DNA from: a virus
Lineage: Duplodnaviria; Caudoviricetes
Strand: one strand, 5' to 3'
IMG/VR virus record: IMGVR_UViG_3300020577_014021
Length of the DNA stretch: 64,000 nt
Numbering within the stretch: position 1 is the first letter of the stretch; each line of letters starts with the position of its first letter. The position numbers and the translations under genes are program-made. This document shows, in pieces, positions 501 through 51,747 of this stretch. Below the pieces are notes generated by a model. That model ran no database searches. It saw only the letters and a list, made by a program, of their open reading frames with translations, and was not told the origin of the DNA.

Positions 501-905
501 TTAAAATTTCAATTCAATATCAGGTGGAGATGGTTGTTTTGGTTTTTTATTTTGTTCGTCTAATCTTTTTTGTTCTTTCTGAAGTTCCTCATATTCTAAT
601 TGATTGAACCATTCCTCATCTTCTTTTTCCATATCGTGATTGACATTATTTAAGAGATTATGTTTAGCTTTTTTGATTTGCTCATCTGATAAAGAAAAAT
701 AATGATGCTCACGCAAATGTAATAATATATATGCTATATTTAATTTTTCTACTTCTGTAATTGGTATATGAAATGTAATTGAAAATTGTCTATATAAATA
801 TCTCAGATGAGTAGAAAAATCTGGATCGATTCTATTTTTTAAAGCAATTAAATCTGTTTGAGTATATAGCTCTGATATACTTTTAACAAATTCAGAACCC
901 AACAT
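501..905 (-). CDS. putative tail assembly chaperone (second)
   Basis: 134-aa ORF immediately before the putative tape measure; synteny only. Confidence 0.45.
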   Translation of the reverse strand: MLGSEFVKSISELYTQTDLIALKNRIDPDFSTHLRYLYRQFSITFHIPITEVEKLNIAYILLHLREHHYFSLSDEQIKKAKHNLLNNVNHDMEKEDEEWFNQLEYEELQKEQKRLDEQNKKPKQPSPPDIELKF

Positions 906-906
906 A

Positions 907-1302
907 TTAAACTTTTTCTAAATTATTTTTTGCCTTATCGGCTTCAGAAGCAATATTATCACGCCATTTTTTTGCTTCTTCTTGAATTCGTTGATTTAAC
1001 AACAAAGGAATATTAAAATCATAACAATTTTTTAAATTATCACTTTCAGTAAACCAATTAGGAGAACTAACGACATGTGCTTTTAATTGTGCCAAAAGCA
1101 GAGCTGCTCCATATGACTCAGAATCAATTGTCTCATTTTCTTTTGGATGATTTAACAGTTCTCTTTGTTCATTATTTAATGAAATATATTCCATTAAATT
1201 AAGAGCAGGTTTAATTTGAAAAACACCTTGATAAACAGTGCCAGTCAATTCACCTTTGGCTTCAAATGTAAATTTGATTTTTTCGAAAGGATTAATATTC
1301 AT
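907..1302 (-). CDS. putative tail assembly chaperone
   Basis: 131-aa ORF between tube and tape measure; synteny only. Confidence 0.5.
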   Translation of the reverse strand: MNINPFEKIKFTFEAKGELTGTVYQGVFQIKPALNLMEYISLNNEQRELLNHPKENETIDSESYGAALLLAQLKAHVVSSPNWFTESDNLKNCYDFNIPLLLNQRIQEEAKKWRDNIASEADKAKNNLEKV

Positions 1303-1343
1303 ACTTCATAGTATAAGTACAAATATTATAAATGAGAGGAAAA

Positions 1344-2213
1344 TTAAACACCAAGATTTGGTCTAAATACGAAATTAAAAGCTAAATCAATACCACTAAT
1401 ATCAACGCCACCTGTTTCAGGAATTTGGAATTTAAATCCAAAGGTATCACCAGCATAAACCGGCATACCAGGCGAAGCGCGCGACAATCTAAATCCACCT
1501 TCATCTGCACTGATTGCAGCAACAGCAGATACTGCAACAGGATTGGTACGTCCTTGTTTAATTGCTGTAATCACAGTACTACCAGTGACTGCTGTAACCA
1601 AGTATACGCCAACATTAACCAAGTTTGCAGCACGGAAATTTGTTGACGTTTCTCTAATATAAATCAAATCACCAACATTTGGCAAATTAGCAAATGTCGT
1701 TGTAGCTGTCATGGTAATTGTTTTTGTACTAACAGCAATAGCATAAGTATTAGTGGCAGTTACCAATGGAACATCTTCACTTAAAGCTATTGGAGCAAAA
1801 GAATTATTTTCCATGCCGGTAATTAAACTAACAGGTGTACCAACATATCCATTATGTGTGCTGTAAAACACATAAGGAAAAACCAAATAATTTTGAATTG
1901 CGGTAGTTCCAGCAGTCCAAAGATCAAAACTATCATAACAATATACATTGCCTGAAATCACATAACCATCACATGGCGCTTGAAAAATAGGTAACTCACG
2001 AACTACTAAACCGCCAGCATCAGGAGCAGGCATATTCCCAGTCCATGTAAAATATTTATCACGCAAAGCATTTACCATTCCATCGCCAGAGATCATGTCA
2101 CCTAATTTGATATCATCAGCATATTTTCCAGTAAGTTGCGCATAAGATTTTAACGCTGGTTGAGAATCAGCATAAGCATTTAAAGTTTGTTTTTGAAGTA
2201 AAGTCATTGCCAT
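1344..2213 (-). CDS. virion structural/decoration protein
   Basis: Thr/Ala/Val-rich beta composition; PNVGDLIYI..NVGVYLVTAV repeat shared with the sheath insertion. Confidence 0.5.
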   Translation of the reverse strand: MAMTLLQKQTLNAYADSQPALKSYAQLTGKYADDIKLGDMISGDGMVNALRDKYFTWTGNMPAPDAGGLVVRELPIFQAPCDGYVISGNVYCYDSFDLWTAGTTAIQNYLVFPYVFYSTHNGYVGTPVSLITGMENNSFAPIALSEDVPLVTATNTYAIAVSTKTITMTATTTFANLPNVGDLIYIRETSTNFRAANLVNVGVYLVTAVTGSTVITAIKQGRTNPVAVSAVAAISADEGGFRLSRASPGMPVYAGDTFGFKFQIPETGGVDISGIDLAFNFVFRPNLGV

Positions 2214-2251
2214 ATGAAAAAGCTCCTATTAAGTGTATTAGTACCAATAGA

Positions 2252-2686
2252 TTAAGTTTGTGCTTTAGTTTCTTCTTTTTTCTTAAAATTCATATAATCA
2301 ACAATTTTTTGCCAATAATCTAATCCTGTTATGTAATACAAATTTTCTAGATTAGATTTTAGCTCTGTCACAGCAATCAACCCAGCAATTAATCTTACAA
2401 CAGGCACACCAAGCTGAAATACTGTTTCAACCGTATAACTTAACACAACAGCAATTTCGTAAGCTAAAATTTTATTGATTGTTTTCCTGAGTCCAACTGA
2501 TGTGACTTTTTCTTGTTTCTTAATAACTACCCATAAAGCTGTTATAAGATCTGTAACCGCCAAAAACATAATAGCAGTCATCACAGCACGTACAGGGCTA
2601 ATAAAAACAATAAGCCAACCAAACAATTGACTCATGGCAAGAAAAAAATCTTCATATTTGATTGTATGAAACAAATTCTTAACCAT
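2252..2686 (-). CDS. phage holin
   Basis: Several TM segments; D(L)ITA..TSVGLRKTINK..ELKSNLENL pattern typical of phage lysis holins; GGAG RBS supports a start at 2686 rather than 2767. Confidence 0.7.
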   Translation of the reverse strand: MVKNLFHTIKYEDFFLAMSQLFGWLIVFISPVRAVMTAIMFLAVTDLITALWVVIKKQEKVTSVGLRKTINKILAYEIAVVLSYTVETVFQLGVPVVRLIAGLIAVTELKSNLENLYYITGLDYWQKIVDYMNFKKKEETKAQT

Positions 2687-2705
2687 GATATTATTCTCCA
2701 CGTAA

Positions 2706-3452
2706 TTATGTTGCAGTAGCGTTGATTGTTCCACCGGTAGGGGCTCCCACAAGATAAAAAACACCAATCACTGCAGCACTATCCATTTTCAAACCATTTG
2801 TTGCAAAATCCAATACAAAAGAAGAATAAGAAGGCAGTTCCCATTTCTGTACCCCCTTATAAGTAATACCAACATTTGCATCTAAATTATTTATTACTTG
2901 TAGTATTGATCTATCAGCATTAAGCGTTAAAATGGTATTTGCTGTACCTGCTGAGGTTCCAGTCACAGCACCAAAAGCCAAAGAAGCAAACTGTGGATCA
3001 ATTGATACTAAACTTGTAACTGGCGTAGGAACAATAGTAATATTATTGGAAAAATTTCCTTGAGGGTCAACATTCATAACCCTAAAAGCTGCTACTGGTG
3101 CTGTTTCATAAGCACCTAAGGCAACATTGACTTTTTCTGGAAAATCCCTTGTTACCATTATTGTTTTAATAGCAGCTGCATTTGCTGTGGTATAAGCAGA
3201 ACAATTTTGCGTTACATATCCACTTTGATTAGTGATAGGCCATGGGCCAACAGAAAACTGTGTAGTAGACAATACTTCTAAAACTTGTAAAAACAATTTT
3301 GGAGTTGTCGTATTATCACTTAAAGTAAGTGGCTGCCCAACATGTAAACCATTAGTGCTAGCAACAGTCAAAACACCATTTGACCCACCATTAGCAGTTA
3401 AGGTTTTTGCAACTTCAGGATAAATCATTGTATCTCTAATCAAAGAACCCAT
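2706..3452 (-). CDS. virion structural protein
   Basis: Beta-rich Thr/Ala/Val protein inside the tail operon. Confidence 0.45.
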   Translation of the reverse strand: MGSLIRDTMIYPEVAKTLTANGGSNGVLTVASTNGLHVGQPLTLSDNTTTPKLFLQVLEVLSTTQFSVGPWPITNQSGYVTQNCSAYTTANAAAIKTIMVTRDFPEKVNVALGAYETAPVAAFRVMNVDPQGNFSNNITIVPTPVTSLVSIDPQFASLAFGAVTGTSAGTANTILTLNADRSILQVINNLDANVGITYKGVQKWELPSYSSFVLDFATNGLKMDSAAVIGVFYLVGAPTGGTINATAT

Positions 3453-3491
3453 ATGTAGTGCCTAATTCCTTTTGTTAATAGTTATTGAAGA

Positions 3492-3980
3492 TTACTGAAA
3501 TTTAGCTGGATCGCCTGGATCATCAAACAAAACACCCTCTTCAATAGCCTCATCCTGCATAATTATACCCAAGAACGTCGCAGTATAACTATTCGTAGCT
3601 TTGGCACTCATGTCACTAGATAAGCCAGTATTACGACAACGAGTAACACGCATGACAACTTTTTTGGTCTCACGATCTTCAACGTGAATATCGAATTCTA
3701 CGTTTTTAAATAATTCACCAGGAGGTGTAGCAATAGATTTACCGTTTTCTTTATGATATGGGCCTTTGCCAATTACCTTAAAACCAGTAAGTGTTAAAGA
3801 CACGGCTTCATAAGAAGTCAGCACAATTTCTTGTGCTTCAAAACGACCCAATGTATGAATAGCCTCAGCACCATGACTAACAGTAAAACTGATATTTGAT
3901 GCCACTCCAACTAATCTATTGGCCACGTACACTTTAGCACGTGCACCTTGCATTGTTTCTGCAATACCATTAACAGCCAT
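3492..3980 (-). CDS. tail tube protein
   Basis: 162 aa directly downstream of the sheath; GARAKVY..VG..I..LGRFEAQEI pattern typical of tube proteins. Confidence 0.8.
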   Translation of the reverse strand: MAVNGIAETMQGARAKVYVANRLVGVASNISFTVSHGAEAIHTLGRFEAQEIVLTSYEAVSLTLTGFKVIGKGPYHKENGKSIATPPGELFKNVEFDIHVEDRETKKVVMRVTRCRNTGLSSDMSAKATNSYTATFLGIIMQDEAIEEGVLFDDPGDPAKFQ

Positions 3981-4005
3981 GTGATTTATCCTCTTCTAAA
4001 AAAAA

Positions 4006-6873
4006 TTAAGCAGTTTGAGTCACTTGTGAAACGTTCAAGGTAATCGGCACGAAGTTAATTGCATTGGTAATGTACACATTGACATTAACCTTCATCACAG
4101 GTCCAACAATCTGGATGGACGCTGAATCAAACCCGGCCGGTGCACCGTCACTTTGTGTAATCAGTTTATTCTGTAAATACTGATCCATCTTTGCTTTTAG
4201 GAAAACCAAAGCATTTGCCGCAGACAAATCAGAAATAGCCTGACCAACCGCAAAGTTATCAAATGACCGCAAAAGATCCAAAGCCATAAAATCAGCAGTG
4301 TACATAACTTGTAGACTGTTGAAGACAAAGTTATTGTCTTTACCGTAGGTAGTTTGATCACTGACCCAACGGAAACCACCAGTGGGTGGGTTTTCTAAAA
4401 CCAACAGACCAGACAACAAAGCATCTTCAAGCTGCCCATTGTTTCTTGGATTGAAATCATTAAATGGAGTCACTACACCTGAAACGTTGGCATATTTATG
4501 CTCAATTGATTTATACAAACCAATTGATTGCATGGAAGCCGCAATGACAGCGCCATACCAAGGTTGAAATTGTACAATGTTTCCGCTAATACTCACAGCT
4601 TTGATGTCTTGGAAAGTCAAAGCCACCCTAGCTGAAGCTAAATTCTGCGCTTGAGTTTTAACATTAGTAAACGTATTTCGATAAGAAACAACAGCCAATC
4701 TATTCTTTCTCATCTTGATTTGAGACATTGCTAAAACATGACTCTTTGTATATGCATTGATTGCATCAATGGTATACGTAGAAGTCGGATCCGTTAAACC
4801 AGCAGCAATATCCAAAGTGGCATCACGACTAAACAAAGGAACCACAAAATTACAATCAATGTCAGCTAATTTATCAATAGCTGCAATAACAGATGCTCCA
4901 GTGGTACCACCCTTAGCGCCACCACTGAAAAACACAGGTAAAATAGTCGATTCTGGCAAACCAGCTACTGCAGTACTAGCAAACAAAACATTGGGAGATA
5001 AAGCTAATTTAGACTTAAAGTCATATAAATCTTTTTTAAGTTTCAAAGGAAATGCTGTACCAGCAGTCGAAGTAGCAAAATTAAATGTGCCTTGGTCTAA
5101 GATGGTGGGTGACAATTGACCCACTGCAGTCGTACCAACTGCAGCCATATAACCAGTTTGAGAATTAATGTAACCAACCAAATCAGACAATGTTGGATAA
5201 CTTGAGAAATTCAAAGTTAAATTAGCACCAGAACCACCAGTGACAGTAGTCGTTAAAGAAGTTCCAGTTACAACTACCGAAGCTGTTGTGCCAATATAAG
5301 ATAACTTAAGAGCAATCACACCACCAATAGCTGTGTAAGATTCTTGCAAATTATCATTAGAACGACTAATTAAGAAATTGGTTTGATAATCTACACCTTC
5401 TACAATATAGGGTATACCTGCTGTTGAAATCCAAGTAGCTGCAGTAGTAGTAGCCAAGTTATAAAAAACTTGATTAATATTTCTGCCGCCACCACCATCA
5501 GTTACTTCAAAGCCAAGTCTAATACCATCAATCCATGGTCTAAAAACCTGAGCATCATTATTTGGCGTAGCACTGAAGGTTGTAGCCGCAACGTTTGCGG
5601 GTGTACCATTTGAAACACGTGCAGCAACAAAATAAGCGCTACTCGTTACATTATTAACTGTGGTAATCGTATAATACCCAACGTTGGCATTACCACCACC
5701 AGCAACTGCAGATCCAAGAGGAATATAAAAAGTATCACCAACTCTAGGTCCATTAGCGCCCTGAGCAAAAGCCGTAGCGCCAGTCAAATTCAACTGTAAA
5801 TTAGAACCTGAGGCTGTAATCGAAACGCCAGCACTTGCAAGTGCAGCAAAAGAACTACGATTTGTTCCGGACTTATCAGTTACAGTCACAGGACTGTAAA
5901 CTTGCATATCGTTAGTAACCGTAGCACTAAATGCAGTAGCAGCCACACTAACAGGTGCAGTAACCGTAGCATTTACATGATCAGCAACCTTAGTTGCTGT
6001 AATAAATGCAGAAGAAGTTGTATTCGAAACTGCTGTAACGACATACGTACCTAAGTTTGCATTACCTGCACCAGCAAAAGCTGAATTAGCACTAGCACCA
6101 TACAAAGTATTAGCAGGCAAAATTAACAAATCACCAGGAATAGGTGTTGCAGCAAATACAGAACCAGCAGCTAAAGTAAATGTAACTGAGCTACCAGAAG
6201 CAACAGTCGTTAAATTAATTGTTGCCAAACCAGTAAAAGCACTTCTGTTAATACCACCAGTGGCCAATAAAGAACCATTAGTTAAAGTAGTCACTAAAGT
6301 TGTGGGTGACATATTCGCAGTAACAGTCAATGTCGTAACTGCGCTACCACGTAAACGATAATTAAACAAAGCAGAAGTTGCAGCACTAGGAACAGGAATA
6401 TAAGTAAAACTACCAGTTGTTGGAGCAACTGCAGCAGTATAGACTGTATCTTCCCATTTTAAATTACTGCCATTGGCACCAGCCTTGATAGCTGTTAAAG
6501 TTCCATAGTTAAGACCAATGGTGGGAATAATACTTGTTGCAGCAGTACTAGGATTAGTTTTATATAAATAAATTCTAGTTACGCTACCAGGCAAATTAGG
6601 ATCATTGGCAGGTGCCACTGCAGCCTTAAATGCATCAACTAAAGGCCCAGAAGTATATTTGCTAATTACATCACCCATTTGTGCAGGAGTAAAGTAATTC
6701 AGTGTCAAATCTTCTGTGGTATCACTGGTAGCCAAACCTTCATCTGCTTCACCAATCAAAGCCAAAAATCCAGCTACACCAATACCAGAAGCAGGAGTTT
6801 GTACATTGATTCTGGTATATGCACCAGGTATAATTAATGTACCAAAATCTGTGGATGAGTAAGTTAATGCCAT
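4006..6873 (-). CDS. tail sheath protein with large inserted domains
   Basis: N-terminal PGAYTRI..ALIGEA; FSGGAKGGTT; C-terminal sheath domain ending INFVPITLNV; 955 aa. Confidence 0.9.
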   Translation of the reverse strand: MALTYSSTDFGTLIIPGAYTRINVQTPASGIGVAGFLALIGEADEGLATSDTTEDLTLNYFTPAQMGDVISKYTSGPLVDAFKAAVAPANDPNLPGSVTRIYLYKTNPSTAATSIIPTIGLNYGTLTAIKAGANGSNLKWEDTVYTAAVAPTTGSFTYIPVPSAATSALFNYRLRGSAVTTLTVTANMSPTTLVTTLTNGSLLATGGINRSAFTGLATINLTTVASGSSVTFTLAAGSVFAATPIPGDLLILPANTLYGASANSAFAGAGNANLGTYVVTAVSNTTSSAFITATKVADHVNATVTAPVSVAATAFSATVTNDMQVYSPVTVTDKSGTNRSSFAALASAGVSITASGSNLQLNLTGATAFAQGANGPRVGDTFYIPLGSAVAGGGNANVGYYTITTVNNVTSSAYFVAARVSNGTPANVAATTFSATPNNDAQVFRPWIDGIRLGFEVTDGGGGRNINQVFYNLATTTAATWISTAGIPYIVEGVDYQTNFLISRSNDNLQESYTAIGGVIALKLSYIGTTASVVVTGTSLTTTVTGGSGANLTLNFSSYPTLSDLVGYINSQTGYMAAVGTTAVGQLSPTILDQGTFNFATSTAGTAFPLKLKKDLYDFKSKLALSPNVLFASTAVAGLPESTILPVFFSGGAKGGTTGASVIAAIDKLADIDCNFVVPLFSRDATLDIAAGLTDPTSTYTIDAINAYTKSHVLAMSQIKMRKNRLAVVSYRNTFTNVKTQAQNLASARVALTFQDIKAVSISGNIVQFQPWYGAVIAASMQSIGLYKSIEHKYANVSGVVTPFNDFNPRNNGQLEDALLSGLLVLENPPTGGFRWVSDQTTYGKDNNFVFNSLQVMYTADFMALDLLRSFDNFAVGQAISDLSAANALVFLKAKMDQYLQNKLITQSDGAPAGFDSASIQIVGPVMKVNVNVYITNAINFVPITLNVSQVTQTA

Positions 6874-15887: not shown

Positions 15888-16667
15888 ATGCCAAAAATAA
15901 CTGATATTACTTCATACTTTATATATTGTTCCCAAAAACAAAATCATTTTTTAAATGTCAATAAACTACAATTTTTTTTGTACTATAGTCAGATGTATCA
16001 CTTAGCTTATAACCAATCCCTGTTATTCAATGAGCCTATTATTACACAGCAAAATGGTGTCATAATAGAACCTGTTTTTTATGACTATTTACAATATCGT
16101 TACAAGTCTATAGACATACAAAAAAACTATCCAACACTCAATCCCAAAACCGAAAAGATTCTTTCTTTGGTTAATAATATATATACACATTTTGATTCAT
16201 TTGAATTAGAAAAGTACATTAAGTCCGAACTCCCTTTTATAGAAGCTTACGCTACTAATAATCCTATTGATGTTAAAAAGTATAAATCCTATTACCGCAC
16301 AAACGCTTTAACTTCACCTGAGAAAGAGCAGTTAAAACAAACTATCCTTAAACATCATGAACATGCTTTGTCATCTTACAATAAAAACCCGCAAGAACTC
16401 TTACCATTATTTAACCTGCTCGATTTCATCGAGCAACTACCATTAAATATCCTCGTGCCTCAATACCATCACGCTGATCATTGGCATAAACCGCATCTTC
16501 ATTTTAATGTGCACCATGATATATTAGATATATACTTTACACTTGATAGAATCTATTACAAAGGATTAATAAGTTTCAAACAAATTAATAACTCGCACAA
16601 ATGGAAAAAGTCCATACCAAAGAAACTTTTAAACTTACTTACCCATTATCCTTTTTCGCAAGATTAA
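15888..16667 (+). CDS. Panacea (DUF4065/SocA-like) domain protein
   Basis: KLQ..LYY.Q..HLA....LF.EPI....G....VF and E.P motif in the N-terminal half; extra C-terminal domain. Confidence 0.65.
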   Translation: MPKITDITSYFIYCSQKQNHFLNVNKLQFFLYYSQMYHLAYNQSLLFNEPIITQQNGVIIEPVFYDYLQYRYKSIDIQKNYPTLNPKTEKILSLVNNIYTHFDSFELEKYIKSELPFIEAYATNNPIDVKKYKSYYRTNALTSPEKEQLKQTILKHHEHALSSYNKNPQELLPLFNLLDFIEQLPLNILVPQYHHADHWHKPHLHFNVHHDILDIYFTLDRIYYKGLISFKQINNSHKWKKSIPKKLLNLLTHYPFSQD

Positions 16668-18194
16668 AGCCATGCCAATTATATTACCAAAAATAAACTC
16701 GATTGGAAACGAAGCACCAGTGTTATTGCAAGAATGTACAGGAGAATTGTTGCTTGGAGTTGGTTTACTGTCTCCTGTATCTGGCTGCTCAACCTTAATA
16801 CACATCCTGGCTGTAGTATCACAAGTATAACCTGAAAAACACTGTACCTGCGCGCGGCAACCGCCCTGTGTCAATGGAACGCACTTCTGCTGCTCAGCAT
16901 TACAATAAGCATTTAAAGAGCATCCTGAATCATCAGTACACTTAATGTAAGACGGATCGTAATCTTGACACTTATGCTCTAAATTACAAATCTGACCAGT
17001 TTTGCAATCAGTATTAACTGTACATTCTGGTTTTTTTAACTCACATTTGTTTACACTGGTATTGCATACATATTCAGATGTAGACCAAGAATATTTACAA
17101 TCCGAATCTTGAGTGCATTCAGGTGGCCGAGGAACACACTTATTGGTATTTGTATCACACATATTTCCTAGCGTACACGTGCTGTCATTGATGCACTCAG
17201 CACATGCACCTTGTTCTGTGCATACATCCTTTTCATTTGCGCACGGACTACAAGTCGTACCGCACATTTTATTGCTCCGACATACAACTTTTGTATCTTG
17301 ACATAATCCACTTATGCACTGAAAACCTTGATTACAATCTTTAGTTTCATCACACATCTGACATGAAGTGCCATCATATCCATCAATGGTATTGAATAAT
17401 AACCATTTATTCAAAATTGACATTTTATATGGGTTGCCTTTGTCATCCAAATATTTATTATTTTCAAGGTCACTAATATTAATATTGGTATAACCAAAAC
17501 TAAAACCTGCATTGGTAGGGCTACCACTCAATGCACTCAATTCTATTAGAGCATTATCATTATTTTGATAATAAATAATTTCAAAAGGATATAAGCCCTC
17601 ACCTTCAAACTGGACTTGCCGAGTTACTTTATTAAACGGAGATTTATAATCTATATATAAAACAGGCTTACCGGCAATCAAAAGCAGCCCGCCATCATTT
17701 GCATTTAAACCAATAGTTTCAGTGAAGCCTGAAAAAACATTCAAGTATCCTCTAAAGTGAGTGATTACCTTTCTTCCATCAAAAGGTGTTTTTGTATAAT
17801 CCAAATAATCATAACTATCACTAAAATCACCTCTTGATGTTGTGTCAAATAAAAAACTTTGCATGTCCAATGTTCTACGAATACTATAAAGTTCATTGCT
17901 ATTTTTAAAAACATTACCTTTTATAGTAACAGCACCATTTAAACCATTATTTGATAATATGTAGGCATCTAAGGGTGTTTGTAAGTCAACTGAAGAATCA
18001 AATTTATGACTCCTGGAACATAACCCTGAATTGTAGTAATAATAAGGACGCGAAGGAGCTGCTCTTTCCGTTTGTTTAACCACTACTAAATCATTATAAT
18101 TTATGGTTTCTAGTGTCTTTTCATCAAAAGGCAATGGACTTGACATTAAACTTATAGGAAATAATAATACTAAGGCACAAATTATATTTATCAT
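16635..18194 (-). CDS. traA: TraA-like cell-surface protein (PA14-like domain, Cys-rich repeats, MYXO-CTERM-like tail)
   Basis: Signal peptide from 18194 (GGAG RBS); FRGYLNV..GL.ANDG..GLYPFEIIY..ALIELS; CGTTCSPC followed by tandem Cys repeats; C-terminal SC + hydrophobic helix + RKR. Confidence 0.75.
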   Translation of the reverse strand: MINIICALVLLFPISLMSSPLPFDEKTLETINYNDLVVVKQTERAAPSRPYYYYNSGLCSRSHKFDSSVDLQTPLDAYILSNNGLNGAVTIKGNVFKNSNELYSIRRTLDMQSFLFDTTSRGDFSDSYDYLDYTKTPFDGRKVITHFRGYLNVFSGFTETIGLNANDGGLLLIAGKPVLYIDYKSPFNKVTRQVQFEGEGLYPFEIIYYQNNDNALIELSALSGSPTNAGFSFGYTNINISDLENNKYLDDKGNPYKMSILNKWLLFNTIDGYDGTSCQMCDETKDCNQGFQCISGLCQDTKVVCRSNKMCGTTCSPCANEKDVCTEQGACAECINDSTCTLGNMCDTNTNKCVPRPPECTQDSDCKYSWSTSEYVCNTSVNKCELKKPECTVNTDCKTGQICNLEHKCQDYDPSYIKCTDDSGCSLNAYCNAEQQKCVPLTQGGCRAQVQCFSGYTCDTTARMCIKVEQPDTGDSKPTPSNNSPVHSCNNTGASFPIEFIFGNIIGMALILRKRIMGK

Positions 18195-18361
18195 AAATTT
18201 TCTCCAAGGTAAATTCAGCAAAATTTCATCAATTACGATTTTAATAATCTAAAAAAAAAATATTGTCAAATATTTTACAAAAAAATAAAAATTAGATTTT
18301 ATATGTCTTAAATTGATTATAATACTTTTATTATAAATAACACTTATTTATTGTTTAAATA

Positions 18362-18868
18362 CTATATGATTGATGAAGAAAGAAATGAATTGGTTGGCAA
18401 AATTGGCTCAGAAATTTGTTTAAAACAAACTAGAAGACGATAATCTTTAAAAAAATTATTCAAATAAAAATCAGCTCTTGCCAAACAACTTGTAAAAAAA
18501 GCATGGGAAACAGTAAGATTATTGATTTCTTTCCAATTTTTCTCACCCTTTTTTAAATCAGAAATCATATAGAGCTGATGATTTATATAATCATTTTGGT
18601 TAAAATCTAACTCATATTTTTCTTTTAGATCTGCAATAAGCATATTATCAAATTCCATTTCAGGATGTACAGTGACAGGAATACGATTTAATCTTAAAAG
18701 AAAATTATAAAAAAATTCATCTAAATTAGTACAAACTCTATTTTCAATAGTCAAATCTGGAGTGATTTTTTTTATTTTAGAAATAAAAGCAGGCACAATT
18801 ACAGGAATAGCCCATACATGTTGCTCTGTTAAAACCTGCTCAACCACTTTAATCTGTACTTTTAGCAT
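18362..18868 (-). CDS. hypothetical protein
   Basis: 168-aa ORF coupled to the HU gene. Confidence 0.5.
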   Translation of the reverse strand: MLKVQIKVVEQVLTEQHVWAIPVIVPAFISKIKKITPDLTIENRVCTNLDEFFYNFLLRLNRIPVTVHPEMEFDNMLIADLKEKYELDFNQNDYINHQLYMISDLKKGEKNWKEINNLTVSHAFFTSCLARADFYLNNFFKDYRLLVCFKQISEPILPTNSFLSSSII

Positions 18869-19274
18869 TCTTTTTACGCCTTTTTAATCTAAATTCTTGT
18901 TTGTTTTTTTGTAGTTCTTTATACGCTACTTGAAGTTTAGGTTGCATATTTAATAATTCTTGTTTAAAGAATGGAGAAAGAGTGAACCTTAAAGTAATTA
19001 TTTCAGGATACGATTCCATTGACCCATGTTCACCATCCCGTATAGTATATTTTTCAATTTTTGGTCTTTTCTTTAAAGAAAAAGTACCAAATCTATATAC
19101 CTTTACTCTTTTACCTTCAAATAAAGCTTCTCGAATATTATTCCAAATAGAATCATAAAAAAATTCTATTTGCTCATTGGTTAAAACCAAATTATCGTAC
19201 TTTAAAGAACGCATCAAATCTGCTTTATTGTAGTCAAATGGATTATGTGGACGTTCTTTGAAATCTATGTACAT
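18849..19274 (-). CDS. HU/IHF-family DNA-binding protein
   Basis: I.EAL..G..V...FGTFS.K.R...F..S..FK motif. Confidence 0.8.
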   Translation of the reverse strand: MYIDFKERPHNPFDYNKADLMRSLKYDNLVLTNEQIEFFYDSIWNNIREALFEGKRVKVYRFGTFSLKKRPKIEKYTIRDGEHGSMESYPEIITLRFTLSPFFKQELLNMQPKLQVAYKELQKNKQEFRLKRRKKNAKSTD

Positions 19275-19279
19275 AAATT

Positions 19280-19663
19280 TTATTTTTCAGTTAAAAAGGG
19301 AATTAAAGTTTTTACAATAGATGAATATAAATAATCTTTAGATTGCTGAACTCTTGGTAATTCATTATATGGAACCATGCAAGGATGTTCTTTTTTATCT
19401 ATATCTTTAACAGGTCCATAGATCCATCCATCTTGTTCTTTATATTTTAACCACGATTTGTGTGAATCTTCAGGTATAGCTTGTGGGTTTTTAATATGAT
19501 ATTTAACACCTTCAATGGCAGATTGTTTTTGCCATTCTGGAGCCATATCCCATAATGATTGAGAAAAATCTAACTGAGTTTCACACAAAGCCCGATTGGC
19601 TTCATGACAAATTTTAGCAATGTCTTCAATTTTCATTTCATTTCCTATTTTTCTTATAAACAA
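19280..19663 (-). CDS. RyR-domain phage protein
   Basis: H.SW...K..DGW.YGP.KD...K.HPCMVPY.ELP..Q..KD motif. Confidence 0.85.
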   Translation of the reverse strand: MFIRKIGNEMKIEDIAKICHEANRALCETQLDFSQSLWDMAPEWQKQSAIEGVKYHIKNPQAIPEDSHKSWLKYKEQDGWIYGPVKDIDKKEHPCMVPYNELPRVQQSKDYLYSSIVKTLIPFLTEK

Positions 19664-24272: not shown

Positions 24273-25103
24273 TCATAATTCTAACAAATCTCCAATTTCC
24301 CATAAACGATCTGTAATCCCAGCCTCCATAGCAGGGGTCACTCGTAAAGTATAATGTATATTTACAAAATTATAACAGGCAAAATATAAACCAATGGACG
24401 CTTCAAAATTCTCATACTTTTTGCTGAAGCCATTGGTCTTACGCGTTAAACGCCTATTGTTTATGCGCATCGTCAGGTTTTGACGTTCAATCAAAGAAGT
24501 CGAAATGTCTTTCTCAATAGGGTTGCCAATGACAATCGTCTTTTCAACGTTAACTTTTTTATCGTCCTGTTTTTCGACTCCGGCTTCTAAAGCATCAACA
24601 CCTTTTTTCTTCTTGGCATAGGTTTTAACAACTTGCGCATACTCTACTTCTTCGCCAAATCCATTTTCAACAGCTTCAATATATGCAGGAAGCCCGTCAC
24701 TGGAAAGTTGTACTCGGCTCGTTAAACGGCCTACCAAGTCGGCAATAAAAGCGTTAGCATTTTCTCCATCTCGTTTGCCAATTCTATAGCAGGGTACCAG
24801 CTTAGTCTCCGGATCCATGGCCACAAACGTCCAAACACTGCCGACTTTTTCTTCGCCCGGTTTAACGTTTTTCTCTTTTTTCTTAACAAAACCCCAAATC
24901 TCATCGACTTGAATTTTATTGCTTTTGATGTTTTTCATGGTCTTATCGAGCATTTGCTGGCATTTTTGACCAACCTTGACCCCTAATCGCATAATGGTAT
25001 CACGATGAATATGTAGTGTTCCTTCAATAGCGCGAATACTTGCGCCCTTAGCTAATAAATGGATAACTTTGATTTGTTTATCTTTATTTAAAACATAGAC
25101 CAT
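24273..25103 (-). CDS. IS1-family DDE transposase (intact)
   Basis: DEIWGF, SDG, ERQNLTMR and TPAMEAG motifs; start 25103 by alignment with the other copy. Confidence 0.92.
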   Translation of the reverse strand: MVYVLNKDKQIKVIHLLAKGASIRAIEGTLHIHRDTIMRLGVKVGQKCQQMLDKTMKNIKSNKIQVDEIWGFVKKKEKNVKPGEEKVGSVWTFVAMDPETKLVPCYRIGKRDGENANAFIADLVGRLTSRVQLSSDGLPAYIEAVENGFGEEVEYAQVVKTYAKKKKGVDALEAGVEKQDDKKVNVEKTIVIGNPIEKDISTSLIERQNLTMRINNRRLTRKTNGFSKKYENFEASIGLYFACYNFVNIHYTLRVTPAMEAGITDRLWEIGDLLEL

Positions 25104-25203
25104 AATAGTTATTATGATAGATGAACAATTACCTATCATTCTTTTCTTGCTATAATTTTGATGTAATTCTACCGTTTAGTGAAAGAAATATTCACTAATG
25201 GGG

Positions 25204-27995: not shown

Positions 27996-30644
27996 CTATG
28001 AAGACAGAGTGCTTAAATCGCTGACCTTAGAGACTTGTTTATATATAATATCTTTAAAATTCTTAAAATGTTCTTTGCCACATTTGATTTTCATTTTTTC
28101 ACTACTTCTTAACTCTTGATCTTCTCCTTTGGTCTCAGCGACAAAGTATATTTTCCTTTCTCCTTTAAATACTAATGCCCAATCAGGATTATAATTACCT
28201 ATAGGCGTTTCAATTTTAAACCAAAAAGGAAGCTTAAAATAAAATTCAATATTCTCACTGCTTTCACAGTCTTTGGCAAAATTGCTTTCTACTCTTGAAT
28301 CAAGAGGAATGTAATTTTCATAAATGGTTTTTTCCGGCGCATTTATAGTATGCGTAAATTGATCAAGGTATATTTCTAATTCGTTATCCTCAAACAGTTT
28401 CATCTCATATATTTTGTCGCCAATTTTTTCATATTTAATGCCATCAATCATCAATTCGTATAATACTGATTTAATGGCACCCGCAGCATTATCCAAAAAC
28501 AATTGTGGATTCAAAAGCAATTCATTTATTCTGCCTGACTTTTTTAATATTTTTAAAATCGTACTTCTCGTCAATTCCGTTTTATTTTGAATGTACGAAA
28601 GGACATCTGGTACTTCAAACTTAAAATTATAATTGTCATTCCCATTGTTGCTTATTAATTGTCCGTCAATACCTTCATCGGTTATTAACATTTTTTTCTT
28701 TGTTGATTTGATAACGGGCTTTGTTGTCTCTGGCATTTCTCTTAATGACTTAGCCGCAGAAGCAATAAGCTCATCTGTTTTATATTCTACACTATATTGA
28801 GTGTGAAATTTTATCTTGTTCCAAATTTCAAGAAATTTAGGATCAGCTTCAAACCCTTTTCGTAAGTTAACTTTTTTTCTTTTATCTTTGTCTTTTATTC
28901 TGCCTGAAAATTGCACACCGCAATCCTGTTCAATTTCCTGTTGCAGTGTCTTAGCAAAATCTTCATATCGTTCATTGGCAATTACAGTTAGTTTATTTAT
29001 ATTCCGGTCAAAGATTCGCTGACCTGACTGATTTACAGCTAATCGCAAACCTCGGCCAATTTCTTGTCTTTTTTTAATTTCAGATTTGGTTTCATTTAAA
29101 GTACATATTTGGAACACATTGGGATTGTCCCAACCTTCACGCAGGGCTGAATGGCTGAATATGAAACGCAATGGTGTATTTAGATCAAGTAACTTTTCTT
29201 TTTCTTGCATGATAAGTTTATATGTATCATCATCCAATAGCGTTTCACCCCCTGTATCCTTTACTCTACCTTTGTTGTCTTGCGAGAAATAGCCGTTATG
29301 CACTTCTTCTTTGGTGTGAGGATTTAAGCCGCTAAATATGGGCTTTTCTAATTCCTGTTTGTAGATTTCTTCAAACCATTGCGCAAATTTCCCTTTTGTA
29401 GAATTACCATTTGCATCGTATTCTCTGTAATTTTTTACTTTGTCGATAAAAAACAAGGAAAGCACTTTAATGCCTTTTTCTTTATATGCTTTCTCTTTTT
29501 TAAGATGCTCTTCTACAGTTTTACGAATCATGAATTTCATTAATTCATCATTCATTCCGCCTTGTGATTCACCGACCTTAAGGACAATGCCATTAGATAG
29601 TTCTATTTGTTCATTTCCAAAATCAATTTCATATACTTTCAAACCGTCATATTTCGGATGTTGCTCAGATAAAATAAACAAATCTAGATTTTTTTTGTTT
29701 ACCTGTACTGACTTTCGCTTAACTCCCTCTGGTGTATTTACATCAATCTTTATCTTGGCTTTAATGTTGTTTCCAGTTCTGGTTATTGCTTCTAGTTCAA
29801 TAAAAGAAGAATTGAGATTGTTTTCACTGACTACAGAGTCAACTTCTATTTGTTTTACCAATCCTAAATCATAGGCACTAACAGGATTTAATGAATACAT
29901 TAAGTTGTATAGGTTGGTATGGGTTGCAGAATAACGCAAAGTACAAAGCGGATTTAGGTTTTGAATCGCCTTTTTTCGGATATCGGTTTCCATGTTTTGC
30001 GGTTCATCCACAATTACAATAGGATTACAGCTTTGAATAAATTCAATCGGTTTTTTACCTGTTAATTTATCATTTGCCTTGTTGATAACATTTTCATCTT
30101 TAGCAAAAGCATCAATATTGATTACTAAGATTTGTATTGCATTGCTGCCAGAAAATCCCCTAATACTGGAAATTTTTTTACTGTCATATATTTCAAAATT
30201 AATGGCCGTTTTGTCATATAAAGATTGAAAATGCTCGTGCGTAATTTGTAGATTTTTCAATACGCCTTCTCTAATAGCTACAGATGGAACTACGATGACA
30301 AACTTCTTAAATCCATAAAGTTTTTGCAACTCATAAATTGTTCTAAGATATACGTAGGTTTTGCCTGTGCCGGTTTCCATTTCCACCGAAAAATTCATGC
30401 CATGAAATTCATTGTTATCTGTTTTTATTTTATTGTGTTGTTGAATTATTTGTATGTTTGCCCAAATCTGTTCTTCGGACAAAGCAAGCTTATTTCCCAA
30501 ACCATTTTCAGAAAGAAGAGATCCGTATGAAGTCATTGAAAATTCAAAATCACCGCCTTTTAAAGGCTGTCCTTCAAATATATCAGTGATAGATTTTATC
30601 GCTTCTATCTGGTAATCTTGGTTGCTGTCGAAGTGTAGTTTCAT
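27996..30644 (-). CDS. res: type III restriction endonuclease Res subunit
   Basis: METGTGKT, DEPQ, YSATH, SALREGWDNPNVFQIC, QEIGRGLR; C-terminal YNPDWA..ETK nuclease. Confidence 0.95.
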   Translation of the reverse strand: MKLHFDSNQDYQIEAIKSITDIFEGQPLKGGDFEFSMTSYGSLLSENGLGNKLALSEEQIWANIQIIQQHNKIKTDNNEFHGMNFSVEMETGTGKTYVYLRTIYELQKLYGFKKFVIVVPSVAIREGVLKNLQITHEHFQSLYDKTAINFEIYDSKKISSIRGFSGSNAIQILVINIDAFAKDENVINKANDKLTGKKPIEFIQSCNPIVIVDEPQNMETDIRKKAIQNLNPLCTLRYSATHTNLYNLMYSLNPVSAYDLGLVKQIEVDSVVSENNLNSSFIELEAITRTGNNIKAKIKIDVNTPEGVKRKSVQVNKKNLDLFILSEQHPKYDGLKVYEIDFGNEQIELSNGIVLKVGESQGGMNDELMKFMIRKTVEEHLKKEKAYKEKGIKVLSLFFIDKVKNYREYDANGNSTKGKFAQWFEEIYKQELEKPIFSGLNPHTKEEVHNGYFSQDNKGRVKDTGGETLLDDDTYKLIMQEKEKLLDLNTPLRFIFSHSALREGWDNPNVFQICTLNETKSEIKKRQEIGRGLRLAVNQSGQRIFDRNINKLTVIANERYEDFAKTLQQEIEQDCGVQFSGRIKDKDKRKKVNLRKGFEADPKFLEIWNKIKFHTQYSVEYKTDELIASAAKSLREMPETTKPVIKSTKKKMLITDEGIDGQLISNNGNDNYNFKFEVPDVLSYIQNKTELTRSTILKILKKSGRINELLLNPQLFLDNAAGAIKSVLYELMIDGIKYEKIGDKIYEMKLFEDNELEIYLDQFTHTINAPEKTIYENYIPLDSRVESNFAKDCESSENIEFYFKLPFWFKIETPIGNYNPDWALVFKGERKIYFVAETKGEDQELRSSEKMKIKCGKEHFKNFKDIIYKQVSKVSDLSTLSS

Positions 30645-32582
30645 TTATATTGTTTTAAAATCAATTTCTGCACGTTTCATCTGTAATACTATATTTGTTT
30701 TAAGCTGATCATCACCCGCAAAAAGGTTGTCTAGAATTATTACTTTCCGAGGTTTGGATTCAATAATTTCATTGATAATAGACTGACTTATTTTTTCTAA
30801 ACTAATTATCAGTTCATTATTAACAGAATAAAAATGGTTTTTCTTCTCTACTTTATCTGTCAGTTGATAACCAGCCTTAATCATTAGTTCATAAAGAATG
30901 TTTTTTTCTTGAGCCCCTTTATTCAATGGGTTTGGAAAAGCATCTAATTGTTGCAATAAGTTTTCCTCACTAATTTCATTGCTTTTCCAAATTTTAAAAT
31001 TTGATGAAGAAAGCTTGAATACTTTGAATCCTAAATCAAGGTTATCATTGTTAAATAAATTAGGATTTTCGCCTTTTTCTTTTTTTATCTTATTAATTAC
31101 TTTTCTGATACGATCTTTGCCAATTTCTGCAATCGTTGTGTATCCTGCTTTGAGCGCCTCGCTGCTTTCATCACAAATTTCAGGAAGTTGTACTAAAATG
31201 AATTTTATTTTTTTTGACCCTGTTATTACACCTTGATTATTTAGTTCTAAAACTGCCTGACCTAAAGTTCCTGAACCACTAAAAAAGTCGAGAGCGATAA
31301 ATTCGTCTCCATCGTTCATTGAAAGAAGGTATTTTATAAGAGGGAGAGGTTTAGGATAATCAAAATGTATGTTTTCTTTTTTAAGATTTGCACTTGTAGT
31401 TTGTGTATTCCCAAGGTTAGTTATGACAGAAACAACATGACTTTGGTTTTCTTTTCTCTTTTTAATTATCTCTAAAGAACCTATTTTAGATAAAAGGAAA
31501 GTTGTTTCTTGTCCTTTGCCGTCAAGGATAGGTTTGAAATTATTATTTATAAATTCAAGAGCTAAATCTTTAGAACTCCATCCACTTTCTATAACAGTTT
31601 CGTTAACCAGTTTGAAGTTCTCTACTAAAGCATTATTCAAATAATGAGGCCAAACATTGTCTCGTTTATCAATTATTCCTTTTTCAAAATCAGTAGGAAA
31701 TCCAATTGGTAAAACAATTTCACTAACAGGATTCGCCGGACCATTTTTGACGACTGTATTTTTAATTTGTTCATTGTGTAGTTTACTGTTTGAATTTATA
31801 TTCGGATCTATAACCGGGGGATGAGGAAATAAGTCCAAATTTTTACAATAGGCAAATATATATTCATGACAATTTTTAATTTTTGCTTGATTGTCAAAAT
31901 TTCCATCTGTGCGCCAAATAAAATTAGCTAAAAAATTCTCCTCTCCAAAAATTTCATTCATTATTAACCGGAGGTTATGAACTTCATTGTCATCTATATG
32001 AACAAAAATTACACCATCATCACGTAATAAGGTTTTTGCTAAAAACAACCGAGGATACATCATGCTTAACCAATTGCTATGATAATACCCACTGTCTTTG
32101 CTGTTCTTTCTGAACATTCCTTCTTTCATTAAATGACCTTCTTCGTCTTTATCTCCTACTCGTTTTTCATAATCACTTTTATTTTCTTTGAAATTATCAG
32201 GATAAATAAAATTGTCGTTACCGGTGTTGTATGGCGGATCAATAATTATACACTTTATTTTTCCATGATAAGATTTCTGTAAAATCTTTAATACTTCGAG
32301 ATTTTCGCCTTCAATAAAAACGTTTTGCGAAGTGTCAAAATTAATAGATTCTTCAGGTACGGGTTTTAATGTAGCCGTTGTAGGAATTTGCAGGTTTTTA
32401 AATGCATCTGATTTTCCTGCCCAATTTAAAACATATCTCTCATTGGAAAAATTAATATTATCGCTAAAAACAGCCTTAAACTTTTCCATATCAATTTTGT
32501 CTTCAGAAAAAACATTTGGAAAAAGCTGCTTTAATTTTTCAATATTATCTTGTAATATATGTAGAGGTTTTCCATCCATCAT
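30645..32582 (-). CDS. mod: type III DNA methyltransferase Mod subunit
   Basis: LNWAGK, IEGENLEVLK, DPPY, WLSMMYPRL, DFFSGSGT. Confidence 0.95.
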   Translation of the reverse strand: MMDGKPLHILQDNIEKLKQLFPNVFSEDKIDMEKFKAVFSDNINFSNERYVLNWAGKSDAFKNLQIPTTATLKPVPEESINFDTSQNVFIEGENLEVLKILQKSYHGKIKCIIIDPPYNTGNDNFIYPDNFKENKSDYEKRVGDKDEEGHLMKEGMFRKNSKDSGYYHSNWLSMMYPRLFLAKTLLRDDGVIFVHIDDNEVHNLRLIMNEIFGEENFLANFIWRTDGNFDNQAKIKNCHEYIFAYCKNLDLFPHPPVIDPNINSNSKLHNEQIKNTVVKNGPANPVSEIVLPIGFPTDFEKGIIDKRDNVWPHYLNNALVENFKLVNETVIESGWSSKDLALEFINNNFKPILDGKGQETTFLLSKIGSLEIIKKRKENQSHVVSVITNLGNTQTTSANLKKENIHFDYPKPLPLIKYLLSMNDGDEFIALDFFSGSGTLGQAVLELNNQGVITGSKKIKFILVQLPEICDESSEALKAGYTTIAEIGKDRIRKVINKIKKEKGENPNLFNNDNLDLGFKVFKLSSSNFKIWKSNEISEENLLQQLDAFPNPLNKGAQEKNILYELMIKAGYQLTDKVEKKNHFYSVNNELIISLEKISQSIINEIIESKPRKVIILDNLFAGDDQLKTNIVLQMKRAEIDFKTI

Positions 32583-47054: not shown

Positions 47055-47127
47055 GCTAGTGTAGCTCAATTGGTAGAGCACCGGTTTTGTAAACCGGTGG
47101 TTGTAGGTTCAAGTCCTATCACTAGCT
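47055..47127 (+). tRNA. tRNA-Thr(TGT)
   Basis: Canonical cloverleaf; loop TT-TGT-AA. Confidence 0.95.
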
Positions 47128-48062
47128 TTAGGAGCAATTTATGAGCATGAATTTAGAATGCGATCAATGTGACTTAATACAAACACCTACACAAGTAACT
47201 TATGAATGCTTTTTTGGTAAAACACAACCATGGAAAAAGAAATTAACTAATGAACAAATTAGAGATAATTACATTGCTTGGATAAAAGAAGTTTATAAAA
47301 ATGACAGTAAAGAAAATAAAGAATGGTTAGGAAGTCACATTAATAGACTTATGAATGTAAAAAGACCTCGTTTTCACATTGTATAAAGGAATAAAATGGC
47401 TAAACCATTAATTAAACCACCTATTCAAGAACTTCTCGTAGAGGGGCACAACTATTTGCTAAAAATTACCGGTGTTCGTGATGAATGGGTCAAACATTCT
47501 GTGGTTACCTACCGTGTTAGTTACCATGTCACTGGTAAGCCAGATAAACGATTTGATATGCAACAAAATGATATACGTCTAAATATTGAAAATCTTTTAG
47601 CTGATCCAACTATTAAAAAAGTTGAATGGATTAGAATTAACAATAAAATATTTTTTGACCAAGTTAAAGATTTATGTGTAAAAAGCAAAAAAGACAATAA
47701 TCATGCCATTCTCACCTCATAAAAAAACAAAAAATTAACTGTATCACATTCTATTTCTAAAAAATCTCACCATTATAACTAGAATAACATGTTTTATCTT
47801 TAATTAAAAAACATGGCACACAAAAAAACTCATGGTAAATTTTATGCATGAAAACTGTGGGCCAATACAAAAACATGATAATTGGTTTAAAAAACAATCA
47901 GCTTTACCATAAAACAAAAGAGCAAGAAAAATGGACTATTATCATACCTTGGATACCAGCAAATCAAGATAATGAATCTTTAGTGTATCATTATATTTTG
48001 TTCCGTGAAATAATAGACATTAATCTGTCTAACAAACTCATATAATAATACTGGAGGCTACT

Positions 48063-48365
48063 ATGTTATCTAAAAAAGAATTGGTTATGCTGTGTTTTTT
48101 TGATGTATTGCAATCACTTATGCTTTGTGCTGTTTTATCCAAACTATGGCAATGGTTCTTTGTTCCTACCTTTGGACTACCATTCATTTCTATTCCTGTG
48201 TTCTTTGGTATACGTTTATTTACCATTATACTTTTAGGTAAAAAATTTAATAGACTTGAAAGTAACGAAATTAAATTTCAAAAGGAAATAGAAATCATTG
48301 GCTCTAACATCTGTAGATACACTCTAATGATTTTTTTAGGAAGAGTTGCTTTTGCTTTAAGCTAA
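48063..48365 (+). CDS. membrane protein
   Basis: LW.WF.VP.FGLP.I pattern; hydrophobic. Confidence 0.55.
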   Translation: MLSKKELVMLCFFDVLQSLMLCAVLSKLWQWFFVPTFGLPFISIPVFFGIRLFTIILLGKKFNRLESNEIKFQKEIEIIGSNICRYTLMIFLGRVAFALS

Positions 48366-48653
48366 TAAATCTTCTTGACATTATAATCTTATAAGTGTTA
48401 TAATATTTATAAGATGTTTAAACGATGAATAAGGAGATAATTTATGCATGAAAACGATACCACAAAACGTACAGAAACCATTAAACACTTATCAGTTAGA
48501 TTGCGTACTATTATTAGTCTTATTGACCAATTAGAAGAAACTGATATAATGGAAGTAGTAAATTTCTATTGCCAATTTTGCGGAAAAAAAGTAATGAGTA
48601 ATCGTTGCATTCACAATGAATCTGAAATATAAATATTTTATCTTACGTAGTTA

Positions 48654-48881
48654 TTGACGACTCTATATAGTTCAATTAATTCTTTAGAAATAATCTTTAT
48701 GAATATGGACATTACAGATTCCACATTTTCTTTTTCAGAATATTGTAAAGAAGAGCCGAAACAAAAAGATGAAAAAGAAAATGTGAAGATCCCTGAAGGT
48801 TGTCCTAAATGTGGTGATAGAGGTGAATTCATTCGTATGGCTTTATGTTGTCCAAGACATGGAATGTTTGCAGGTTGTTAG
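48654..48881 (+). CDS. Zn-ribbon protein
   Basis: CPKCGDRGEFIRMALCCPRHG; true start may be internal. Confidence 0.55.
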   Translation: MTTLYSSINSLEIIFMNMDITDSTFSFSEYCKEEPKQKDEKENVKIPEGCPKCGDRGEFIRMALCCPRHGMFAGC

Positions 48882-49205
48882 ATTTTTACAGCTGAAATAA
48901 GAAAGGATAAATATTATGTTAGATAAATTATTAAATTGGGAAGAATGGGATGAAGTGGGACCATGGGGTATGCAATTATATAAAGCAACCCTGAAACAAG
49001 ACATAGGTCCATTCAAAGCAGAAGAAAAATTTCATTTGGTTTATTTTGATTTTGAAGGCGGATTATTGCAATTTTTTAAAAATGAAGGCGATGAAGACGG
49101 TCCCATTGTAAATCTAAAACTTGTCGAAGAAAAATAACATTGGTACCTTGACATCATATAACATCTATAATAGATAAAAGTCATATAAAACAAAAAGAGG
49201 GTTTT

Positions 49206-49748
49206 ATGGAACTTACATTATTATCATCTGATGTTTCAAATAATCAACTTCCTATTTACTTTATTCCACCAAATTGGTACAAAAACCTTTGTAATAATTT
49301 ACTACAAAATTTATATTTAAAAGACCAAGAATACTTTGATGAACAGCTTGAAAATATAAATTTGTTTGCAGTAGATTTTGATACCACTAAGAAAGAATTT
49401 ATTGTTCATATTTTAATTAGCCTAAGAAATACATTAAATCCATATAAACAAGAAAATATTGTAAGCCTCTTGGAATATGCCATTTTTTTATTTGCTACTA
49501 ATAGACCAAAAGACAGTTTAAGAAATTTGTGTCAAAAACATTATCATGCTAAAAACAATAATGATATTGACAACATCACCATATTTAGCATTTTATCGAC
49601 CATCATGTTGCTAATTGAAGACAAAATATTTTCCGCAATTATGTGTTCATTAAGTGCGTATGTCTGCCAATTTCCATCAGAAGAAAAACATGTCTATAAT
49701 GTTTTTGCTACAAAGCTGTTAAACCTTATTGAGAAAAACGAAAGATAA
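49206..49748 (+). CDS. hypothetical protein
   Basis: GAGG RBS; promoter at 49148. Confidence 0.55.
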   Translation: MELTLLSSDVSNNQLPIYFIPPNWYKNLCNNLLQNLYLKDQEYFDEQLENINLFAVDFDTTKKEFIVHILISLRNTLNPYKQENIVSLLEYAIFLFATNRPKDSLRNLCQKHYHAKNNNDIDNITIFSILSTIMLLIEDKIFSAIMCSLSAYVCQFPSEEKHVYNVFATKLLNLIEKNER

Positions 49749-49759
49749 AAGGAGGAGTT

Positions 49760-50023: not shown

Positions 50024-50025
50024 TT

Positions 50026-50652: not shown

Positions 50653-50739
50653 AAACTTAATCTCACATGTAAGACATTTGAATACATAAACTTACCTACC
50701 ATTTAATCTTAAATACAACAAAATAAAACGGGGGCAGCA

Positions 50740-51711: not shown

Positions 51712-51747
51712 TTGCTGTAAAAAACAGAGATATTAATAGGAGAAAAT

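Follow-up and report, generated by a model that had tools for sequence, protein, structure and literature searches.

A phage-borne gene of the myxobacterial TraA family and its possible role at the surface of infected cells

Can a bacteriophage carry a version of the receptor by which myxobacteria recognize their kin, and what might such a protein do in an infected cell? The question is raised by one gene in a 64,000-nucleotide stretch of viral DNA (IMG/VR record IMGVR_UViG_3300020577_014021; this whole stretch is called the window here), which a preliminary description had read as a phage-supplied recognition allele of TraA, the receptor in outer-membrane exchange. TraA and TraB have been reported from myxobacterial chromosomes only, and set who counts as kin (PMC6372800); a literature search found no published report of a phage traA, as that description had supposed. 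We conclude that the window gene is very probably a phage-borne TraA-family gene; its product, which is shortened, stand-alone and strongly diverged, belongs to the TraA-N family of myxobacteria. The account we favour, in which this product is an exported TraA-N-type surface adhesin or recognition protein made during infection, is given a probability of roughly 0.55 when taken as a whole.

The open reading frame (ORF) on the minus strand is open across 16635-18221 in window coordinates. An ATG at 18194, 7 nt past the Shine-Dalgarno (SD) sequence GGAGA, gives a coding sequence of 16635-18194, exactly as first described, and a product of 519 amino acids (aa) that is identical to a database protein (P0001) encoded on a 148,284-bp contig. 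The gene and the parts of its product are as follows, with model confidence given as the predicted local distance difference test (pLDDT).

16635-18194, minus strand: complete coding sequence of the phage TraA-family protein (P0001), 519 aa plus stop; open frame, identical database protein, SD GGAGA.
18138-18194, minus strand: Sec-type signal peptide, residues ~1-19; hydrophobic N-terminus MINIICALVLLFPISLMSS, modelled helix at residues 2-15.
17370-18113, minus strand: head, a PA14 beta-sandwich of the TraA-N type, residues ~28-275; TIGR04566, NF033759, PF27866, pLDDT >95, Foldseek, hhalign.
16794-17363, minus strand: Cys-rich stalk, residues 278-467, ~7 four-Cys hairpin modules; Cys spacing, conservation, aligned cellular stalks.
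16734-16793, minus strand: linker rich in Pro, Thr and Ser (P/T/S), residues 468-487; low pLDDT, least conserved stretch.
16638-16733, minus strand: sorting-type tail, residues 488-519, with invariant Cys489, hydrophobic helix and RKR; motif layout in 7/7 phage proteins.

Searches with hidden Markov models (HMMs), structures and profiles all lead to the TraA family. The protein matches the TraA model NF033759 with 40.5 bits (E-value (E) 1.4e-10) over model positions 14-445 of 666, the TraA_Nterm model TIGR04566 with 29.6 bits (E 5e-7, cut-off 80) and the Cys-rich-repeat model TIGR04201 with 18.9 bits (cut-off 25), and the precomputed assignment of a newer Pfam is PF27866 (Myxo_TraA_N). Searched exhaustively with HMMER, a set of 1.84 billion representatives yielded 77 proteins. 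Forty of these were examined: the TraA model matches every one and TraA_Nterm matches 33, while 7 prove to be TraA-TraB fusions of ~1,000 residues. Moreover, alignment of 7 phage proteins to 20 cellular TraA-N proteins with hhalign (probability 100%, E 2e-58) covers 387 columns that begin at the signal peptide and run through the whole stalk; an alignment of this strength rules out chance as the source of the architecture quoted in the preliminary description. The top match in the ESM-Atlas is a 229-member 'TraA' cluster from Myxococcota, both by features (0.96, 202/256) and by shape. Because the best matches are TraA-family proteins and not generic PA14 or EGF proteins, the similarity is TraA-specific, as had been proposed. 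Among cellular proteins the nearest are short TraA-N proteins, either stand-alone or fused to TraB, with 25-31% identity.

All of the motifs from which the TraA proposal started (HFRGYLNV, GLYPFEIIY, ALIELS, CGTTCSPC and a tail of the form SC-hydrophobic-RKR) are present in the protein, and the estimate of about 6-7 Cys-rich repeats followed by a P/T/S linker agrees with the ~7 four-Cys modules and the linker from residue 468 listed above. The signal peptide was called by visual inspection together with the modelled helix at the N-terminus, not with a dedicated predictor, and an N-terminus of this type is conserved in kind across the 7 phage homologues. The stalk has 31 regularly spaced cysteines between residues 278 and 465, forming the ~7 modules, and these together with C59 in the head give an ectodomain total of 32, an even number; all Cys positions and the tail Cys are kept in the 6 further phage homologues. 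In the tail, which reads HSCNN...LILRKRIMGK in the window protein, [GS]-C-[NS] is followed by a hydrophobic stretch and then by basic residues, a layout present in 7/7 phage proteins; within the window, such a sorting-type tail is unique to the TraA-like protein. An AlphaFold2 model (alignment of 40 relatives; mean pLDDT 85.9, head >95) predicts the shape of a lollipop, with the stalk as a chain of small hairpins that stops at residue 467, a disordered linker (residues 468-497; pLDDT <50 at 475-497), a helix at 498-516 and no second globular head. Foldseek matches the head to the PA14 adhesin domains of Epa6A, MpIBP and Flo5 (E ~1e-8, probability 1.0), and the fold agrees with solved PA14 domains, although the PA14 HMM (PF07691) gives a weak match of 18.6 bits against a cut-off of 24. 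The stalk gives weak matches to TIGR04201, Dumpy DPY and DUF7107, and a PDB sequence search with the protein returned nothing significant.

In a maximum-likelihood tree of 40 head domains the 7 phage proteins lie on one branch (support 99/97), so that the phage copies form a single clade; the TraA-like gene was gained once, by the ancestor of this clade. For two phage alleles that are 86% identical, the ratio of nonsynonymous to synonymous substitution rates (dN/dS) is ~0.18 for the whole protein (head 0.16, stalk 0.19), and the differences among variants in 90% clusters are evenly scattered and never fall at a stalk or tail cysteine. This ratio and the unchanged cysteines lead us to regard the gene as functional and constrained, under purifying selection in the phage lineage. 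What selection has kept in that lineage is an exported, disulfide-rich, tail-anchored TraA-N architecture. Residues 73-144, which correspond to the 'variable N-terminal region' of the preliminary description, are the least conserved folded part of the head among more distant phage copies, with pairwise identities of 27-31% versus 51-57% in the PA14 core; the label therefore holds in this relative sense only. Separately, a sister phage (L001:4965-6341 and L001:6420-7982; also L002, L003 and L005) has two tandem TraA-family genes, encoding P0007 (458 aa, with a shorter stalk) and P0002 (520 aa), and the P0007 branch is at the base of the phage clade.

The carrier is a real phage, contractile-tailed and AT-rich (31% G+C (GC)), with a contig of 148 kb, and is a distant relative of Myxococcus phage Mx1. 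The sole strong match of its tail sheath among 50,697 phage records is that of Mx1 (40% identity over the full length, E 1e-159), and 10-11 virion genes (sheath, tube-region, baseplate-region and capsid-fragment) are collinear with their Mx1 counterparts at 25-41% identity. Within the window are genes for the tail sheath, a sigma factor and 5 tRNAs, together with PHROG matches. Mx1 (OR576727; PMC10720576) is the nearest cultured relative, and both phages have many tRNAs; Mx1, however, is without a TraA-family gene, and a sampled 43-kb stretch of its genome has 55% GC compared to 31% in the window. The TraA-like gene takes the same syntenic position in at least 5 independent assemblies (several JGI, ENA and Logan samples, and a 135-kb IMG/VR contig), flanked on one side by a 168-176-aa ORF, an HU-like gene and a RyR-domain gene, and on the other by genes for a sigma factor, dUTPase and dTMP kinase and by virion genes, the virion module being ~4 kb away. 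This synteny and the collinearity with Mx1 bear out the earlier view that the locus is phage DNA, neither chimeric nor chromosomal. Phage DNA is present in riverine metagenome runs, with small word shares in wastewater runs (word matches, not read alignment). A tblastn search of the 50,697 phage records with the TraA-like protein gave no match, and a scan of IMG/VR with the phage-clade alignment gave a single locus; the same scan with a broad family alignment gave none, using a pattern that would miss even the known phage copy. The GTDB species genomes yielded no close copy, no prophage and no host allele, and two distant matches, in a Deltaproteobacteria and an Eisenbacteria metagenome-assembled genome. 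What this Mx1-like phage carries is a distinct, stand-alone ('A-only') variant of the TraA family.

How near, then, is the phage protein to canonical TraA? It shares with Myxococcus xanthus TraA (NF033759; PMC3325183, PMC6372800, PMC12045341) a type I signal peptide, a PA14-like variable head, a Cys-rich stalk and a Cys/helix/basic tail, in the same order, and homology is detectable from head to stalk. The phage protein, however, has 519 aa whereas the TraA precursor continues to ~residue 687, with Cys686-687 falling within its C-terminal tag (PMC11980579). TraA is described as a dumbbell, the C-terminal part being a second head that is placed on TraB in models of the M. xanthus protein (PMC12045341), whereas the phage model is a lollipop, and the phage protein has no match to the TraA model beyond position 445 of 666. 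The SCNCCP motif is described as invariant in TraA (PMC12045341); it is absent from the phage protein, since there is no Cys-Cys (CC) dipeptide anywhere in the sequence, and it is found in 0/77 HMMER matches. In addition, the phage copy differs from TraA in having no adjacent traB and no TIGR03901 (MYXO-CTERM) match, and in being phage-encoded and AT-rich. Judged by its sequence, the phage protein is not a TraA ortholog. 'Recognition allele' of TraA is thus a name we do not retain, given scores below the TraA and TraA_Nterm cut-offs, the missing C-terminal part and SCNCCP motif, and cellular relatives at 25-31% identity. The TraA architecture with MYXO-CTERM sorting that had been proposed holds for the head, the stalk and the tripartite layout of the tail, but the MYXO-CTERM model itself does not match. 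Cellular TraA-N proteins (PF27866/TIGR04566; P0008, P0010, P0051 and P0009) include stand-alone forms of ~370-550 aa with the same head, a short stalk and the Cys-tag layout, which are the best HMMER matches and align end to end with the phage protein. They differ from it by their 25-31% identity, by GC content (those sampled are on contigs of 57-73% GC (L008, L009, L041, L042), and most are GC-rich by residue make-up) and by the presence, in at least some, of an adjacent or fused TraB.

In the account that we favour, the protein would be exported by the Sec pathway during infection and its stalk oxidized in the periplasm. A host Cys-tag route of the myxosortase type might then lipidate and cleave it at the tail Cys, by analogy with MYXO-CTERM (PMC11980579), and type II secretion would deliver it to the surface of the infected cell. 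There the head, held out on a stiff disulfide-bonded stalk and a flexible linker, could contact other cells, and infected cells would gain a phage-specified adhesive or recognition identity. Surface display of the protein on infected cells is reasonably probable; a role in cell-cell adhesion or recognition is more tentative, at slightly less than an even chance, and direct control of outer-membrane exchange is unlikely. The phage form is TraB-less, truncated and highly diverged, and for this reason a self-contained adhesin or blocker is likelier than a full membrane-fusion device.

Several observations weigh against this account. Every curated cut-off is missed (40.5 bits versus 750 for TraA, 29.6 versus 80 for TraA_Nterm, 18.9 versus 25 for the Cys-rich repeat and 18.6 versus 24 for PA14), and no cellular protein exceeds ~31% identity. 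M. xanthus TraA is not an adhesin by itself, TraB being required (PMC12045341), and neither TraB nor a CPBP/Rce1-like protease was found in the related 135-kb phage, the record of which is 84% complete. The MYXO-CTERM model TIGR03901 gives no match to the tail, or to 4 other phage tails, even at E<=10, so that the action of a host sortase on the tail is an assumption; lineage-specific sorting tags do, however, escape this model according to Haft (10.1101/2023.06.07.544157), and the layout of the tail agrees with that of known tripartite Cys-containing sorting signals (10.1101/2023.06.07.544157, PMC11980579). Finally, head-focused diversification is seen neither in the 90% clusters nor in dN/dS, and nothing points to the kind of allele diversification that typifies TraA.

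The phage protein might instead act on outer-membrane exchange, pairing with or titrating host TraB/TraA and so rewiring or blocking kin-restricted exchange; such a change might, for example, shield infected cells from SitA toxins delivered by kin, or spread surface receptors. Membership in the TraA family speaks for this idea, as do the 1:1 action of TraA and TraB in M. xanthus (PMC12045341), the existence of TraA-like/TraB pairs on bacterial contigs of 40% and 47% GC from similar metagenomes, and TraB-like fragments immediately downstream of P0051, which belongs to the small GC-rich bacterial group that is the sister of the phage clade under midpoint rooting. Nevertheless, we consider it unlikely. 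The match is limited to TraA model positions 14-445 of 666, SCNCCP is absent, and the AlphaFold2 model is without the second globular head, which is the part modelled atop the TraB barrel (PMC12045341). Moreover, TraA recognition requires nearly identical heads (PMC6372800), yet no cellular head is above ~31% identity, leaving no candidate partner allele. In agreement with the earlier statement that no traB is visible in the window, tblastn over the window and related phage loci found no TraB (the search did not extend to the other 84 kb of the phage's own contig), and the TraB model NF033763 matches nothing in the 135-kb record of the related phage, itself 84% complete. A phage 'greenbeard', in which a homotypic receptor on infected cells recruits host TraB and drives or jams outer-membrane fusion with neighbours, is more doubtful again. 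If it were true, the phage would determine with whom an infected cell shares membrane, receptors and kin toxins, and the tandem second copy would give the sister phage two specificities.

Two of the bacterial loci just mentioned have features of their own. Downstream of P0051, an uncalled gap (L041:7666-9566) contains TraB-like barrel and OmpA fragments, and is probably a traB gene broken by long-read indel errors. On the 40%-GC bacterial contig (L017, 115 kb), the region 608-4543 includes a gene for a protein of 748 aa, in which a weak PA14 core is joined to a long Cys-rich stalk and a tail of the form GGCSS-transmembrane segment-KK, and a clear TraB homologue (NF033763, E 1.5e-103) comes directly after this gene; this low-GC traAB-like operon has an unusual, much larger head region. 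When this 40%-GC TraB was compared to 401 genomes of one phylum, a sample that included one unpublished genome (G199) on which no conclusion depends, identity reached 38% at most, and the ten top-scoring loci that were inspected were all of 65-73% GC. As a result, this TraB lineage is not placed.

A lectin-type tether is likewise an unlikely alternative. Here the PA14 head would bind a host glycan (exopolysaccharide or lipopolysaccharide) in a calcium-dependent manner, and infected cells would stick to neighbours or to biofilm matrix, keeping progeny near new hosts. The best structural matches are indeed sugar-binding PA14 adhesins (Candida Epa, yeast Flo and Marinomonas MpIBP), which resemble the phage protein in the fold of the head and in bearing it on a stalk at the cell surface; they differ from it, however, in stalk and anchoring chemistry and are only 9-15% identical. 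The Asp-Asp position, which lectins such as Flo5 and Epa1 use for calcium, is DD in 4/7 phage homologues, but the window protein has ND there and two homologues have ST or DT. This calcium/sugar position is not conserved in the phage clade, nor does it belong to the nearly invariant family columns. In addition, canonical TraA heads bind protein and not sugar (PMC3820747, PMC6626042).

Superinfection exclusion or receptor masking, in which the exported protein covers or sequesters an envelope structure that the clade uses for adsorption, seems improbable. Phage envelope proteins that block receptors are common, T5 Llp being one example, the gene lies in an accessory region with its own upstream spacer, and its product is predicted to be exported and membrane-anchored; a head-on-stalk protein of 519 aa is, however, far bigger than known exclusion lipoproteins. 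There is very little to recommend a virion-associated carbohydrate-binding protein (fibre or capsid decoration), as many phage PA14 proteins are. The BFVD structural matches are phage PA14 proteins, and the gene is ~4 kb from the virion module, but a signal peptide, 16 predicted disulfides and a membrane helix at the C-terminus are out of keeping with a virion that is assembled in the cytoplasm, the neighbouring genes (HU-like, RyR-domain, sigma factor, dUTPase) include none that is structural, and Mx1 has no counterpart. An assembly chimera or bacterial contamination at the locus, which the slightly higher GC content of the gene (34.7% versus a window mean of 31%) might suggest, is effectively refuted by the agreement of JGI, ENA, Logan and IMG/VR assemblies of different samples, which place the gene between the same phage neighbours, and by the lack of a close copy in any of the bacterial genomes among the GTDB species genomes.

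A TraA-family head and stalk under selection in a virus would imply that, besides metabolism or defence, phages of social bacteria interfere with contact between cells. The gene also offers a host clue for uncultured AT-rich phages with contigs of roughly 135-150 kb from rivers and wastewater, and a minimal receptor that occurs naturally without TraB could separate what head and stalk do alone. The host is probably a myxobacterium-like diderm. The phage tRNA-Arg(UCU) and tRNA-Thr(UGU) read AGA and ACA, which are among its most used Arg and Thr codons, a pattern that may hint weakly at a host of higher GC content, as with Mx1, the host of which has ~69% GC. The 5 tRNA genes (Thr-UGU, Asn-GUU, Tyr-GUA, Leu-UAG and Arg-UCU) are scattered over 47055-53695 on the plus strand.

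Two further features lie immediately upstream of the TraA-like gene.

18195-18361, minus strand: AT-rich upstream spacer of 167 bases, with the SD sequence and sigma-70-like hexamers, TTTAAA-18-TATAAT, at 18359-18330.
18362-18868, minus strand: conserved neighbouring ORF of 168 aa, with homologues in L001, L007 and L010.

The promoter-like hexamers of the spacer are no more frequent than in shuffled sequence, and for this reason they are merely suggestive of a promoter. A homologue of the 168-aa ORF stands directly upstream of the TraA-like gene in L007 and ahead of the tandem pair in L001; in L006 its position is occupied by a 176-aa ORF, and similarity between the two was not detected. Pfam and Atlas searches with the 168-aa ORF were without a match. 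Directly upstream of it, at 18849-19663 on the minus strand, are the genes for the HU-like DNA-binding protein and the RyR-domain protein; homologues of both are present in L001, and the HU-like gene is upstream in L007 too. On the other side, a 259-aa ORF (15888-16667, plus strand) with a weak match to the SocA/Panacea antitoxin domain is convergent with the TraA-like gene, the two sharing 33 nt at the 3' end of the latter, and sister phages have no counterpart of this ORF at the same position. Elsewhere in the window, a complete type III restriction-modification pair (Res with its endonuclease domain, and Mod; 27996-32582 and 24273-25139, both minus strand) adjoins an IS1-type transposase gene, and 58206-59456 on the plus strand encodes a homologue of GmrSD-family (DUF262-type) restriction endonucleases. 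At the end of the window, a partial gene (63693-63998, minus strand) encodes a sequence with 41% identity to the C-terminal end of the major capsid protein of Mx1.

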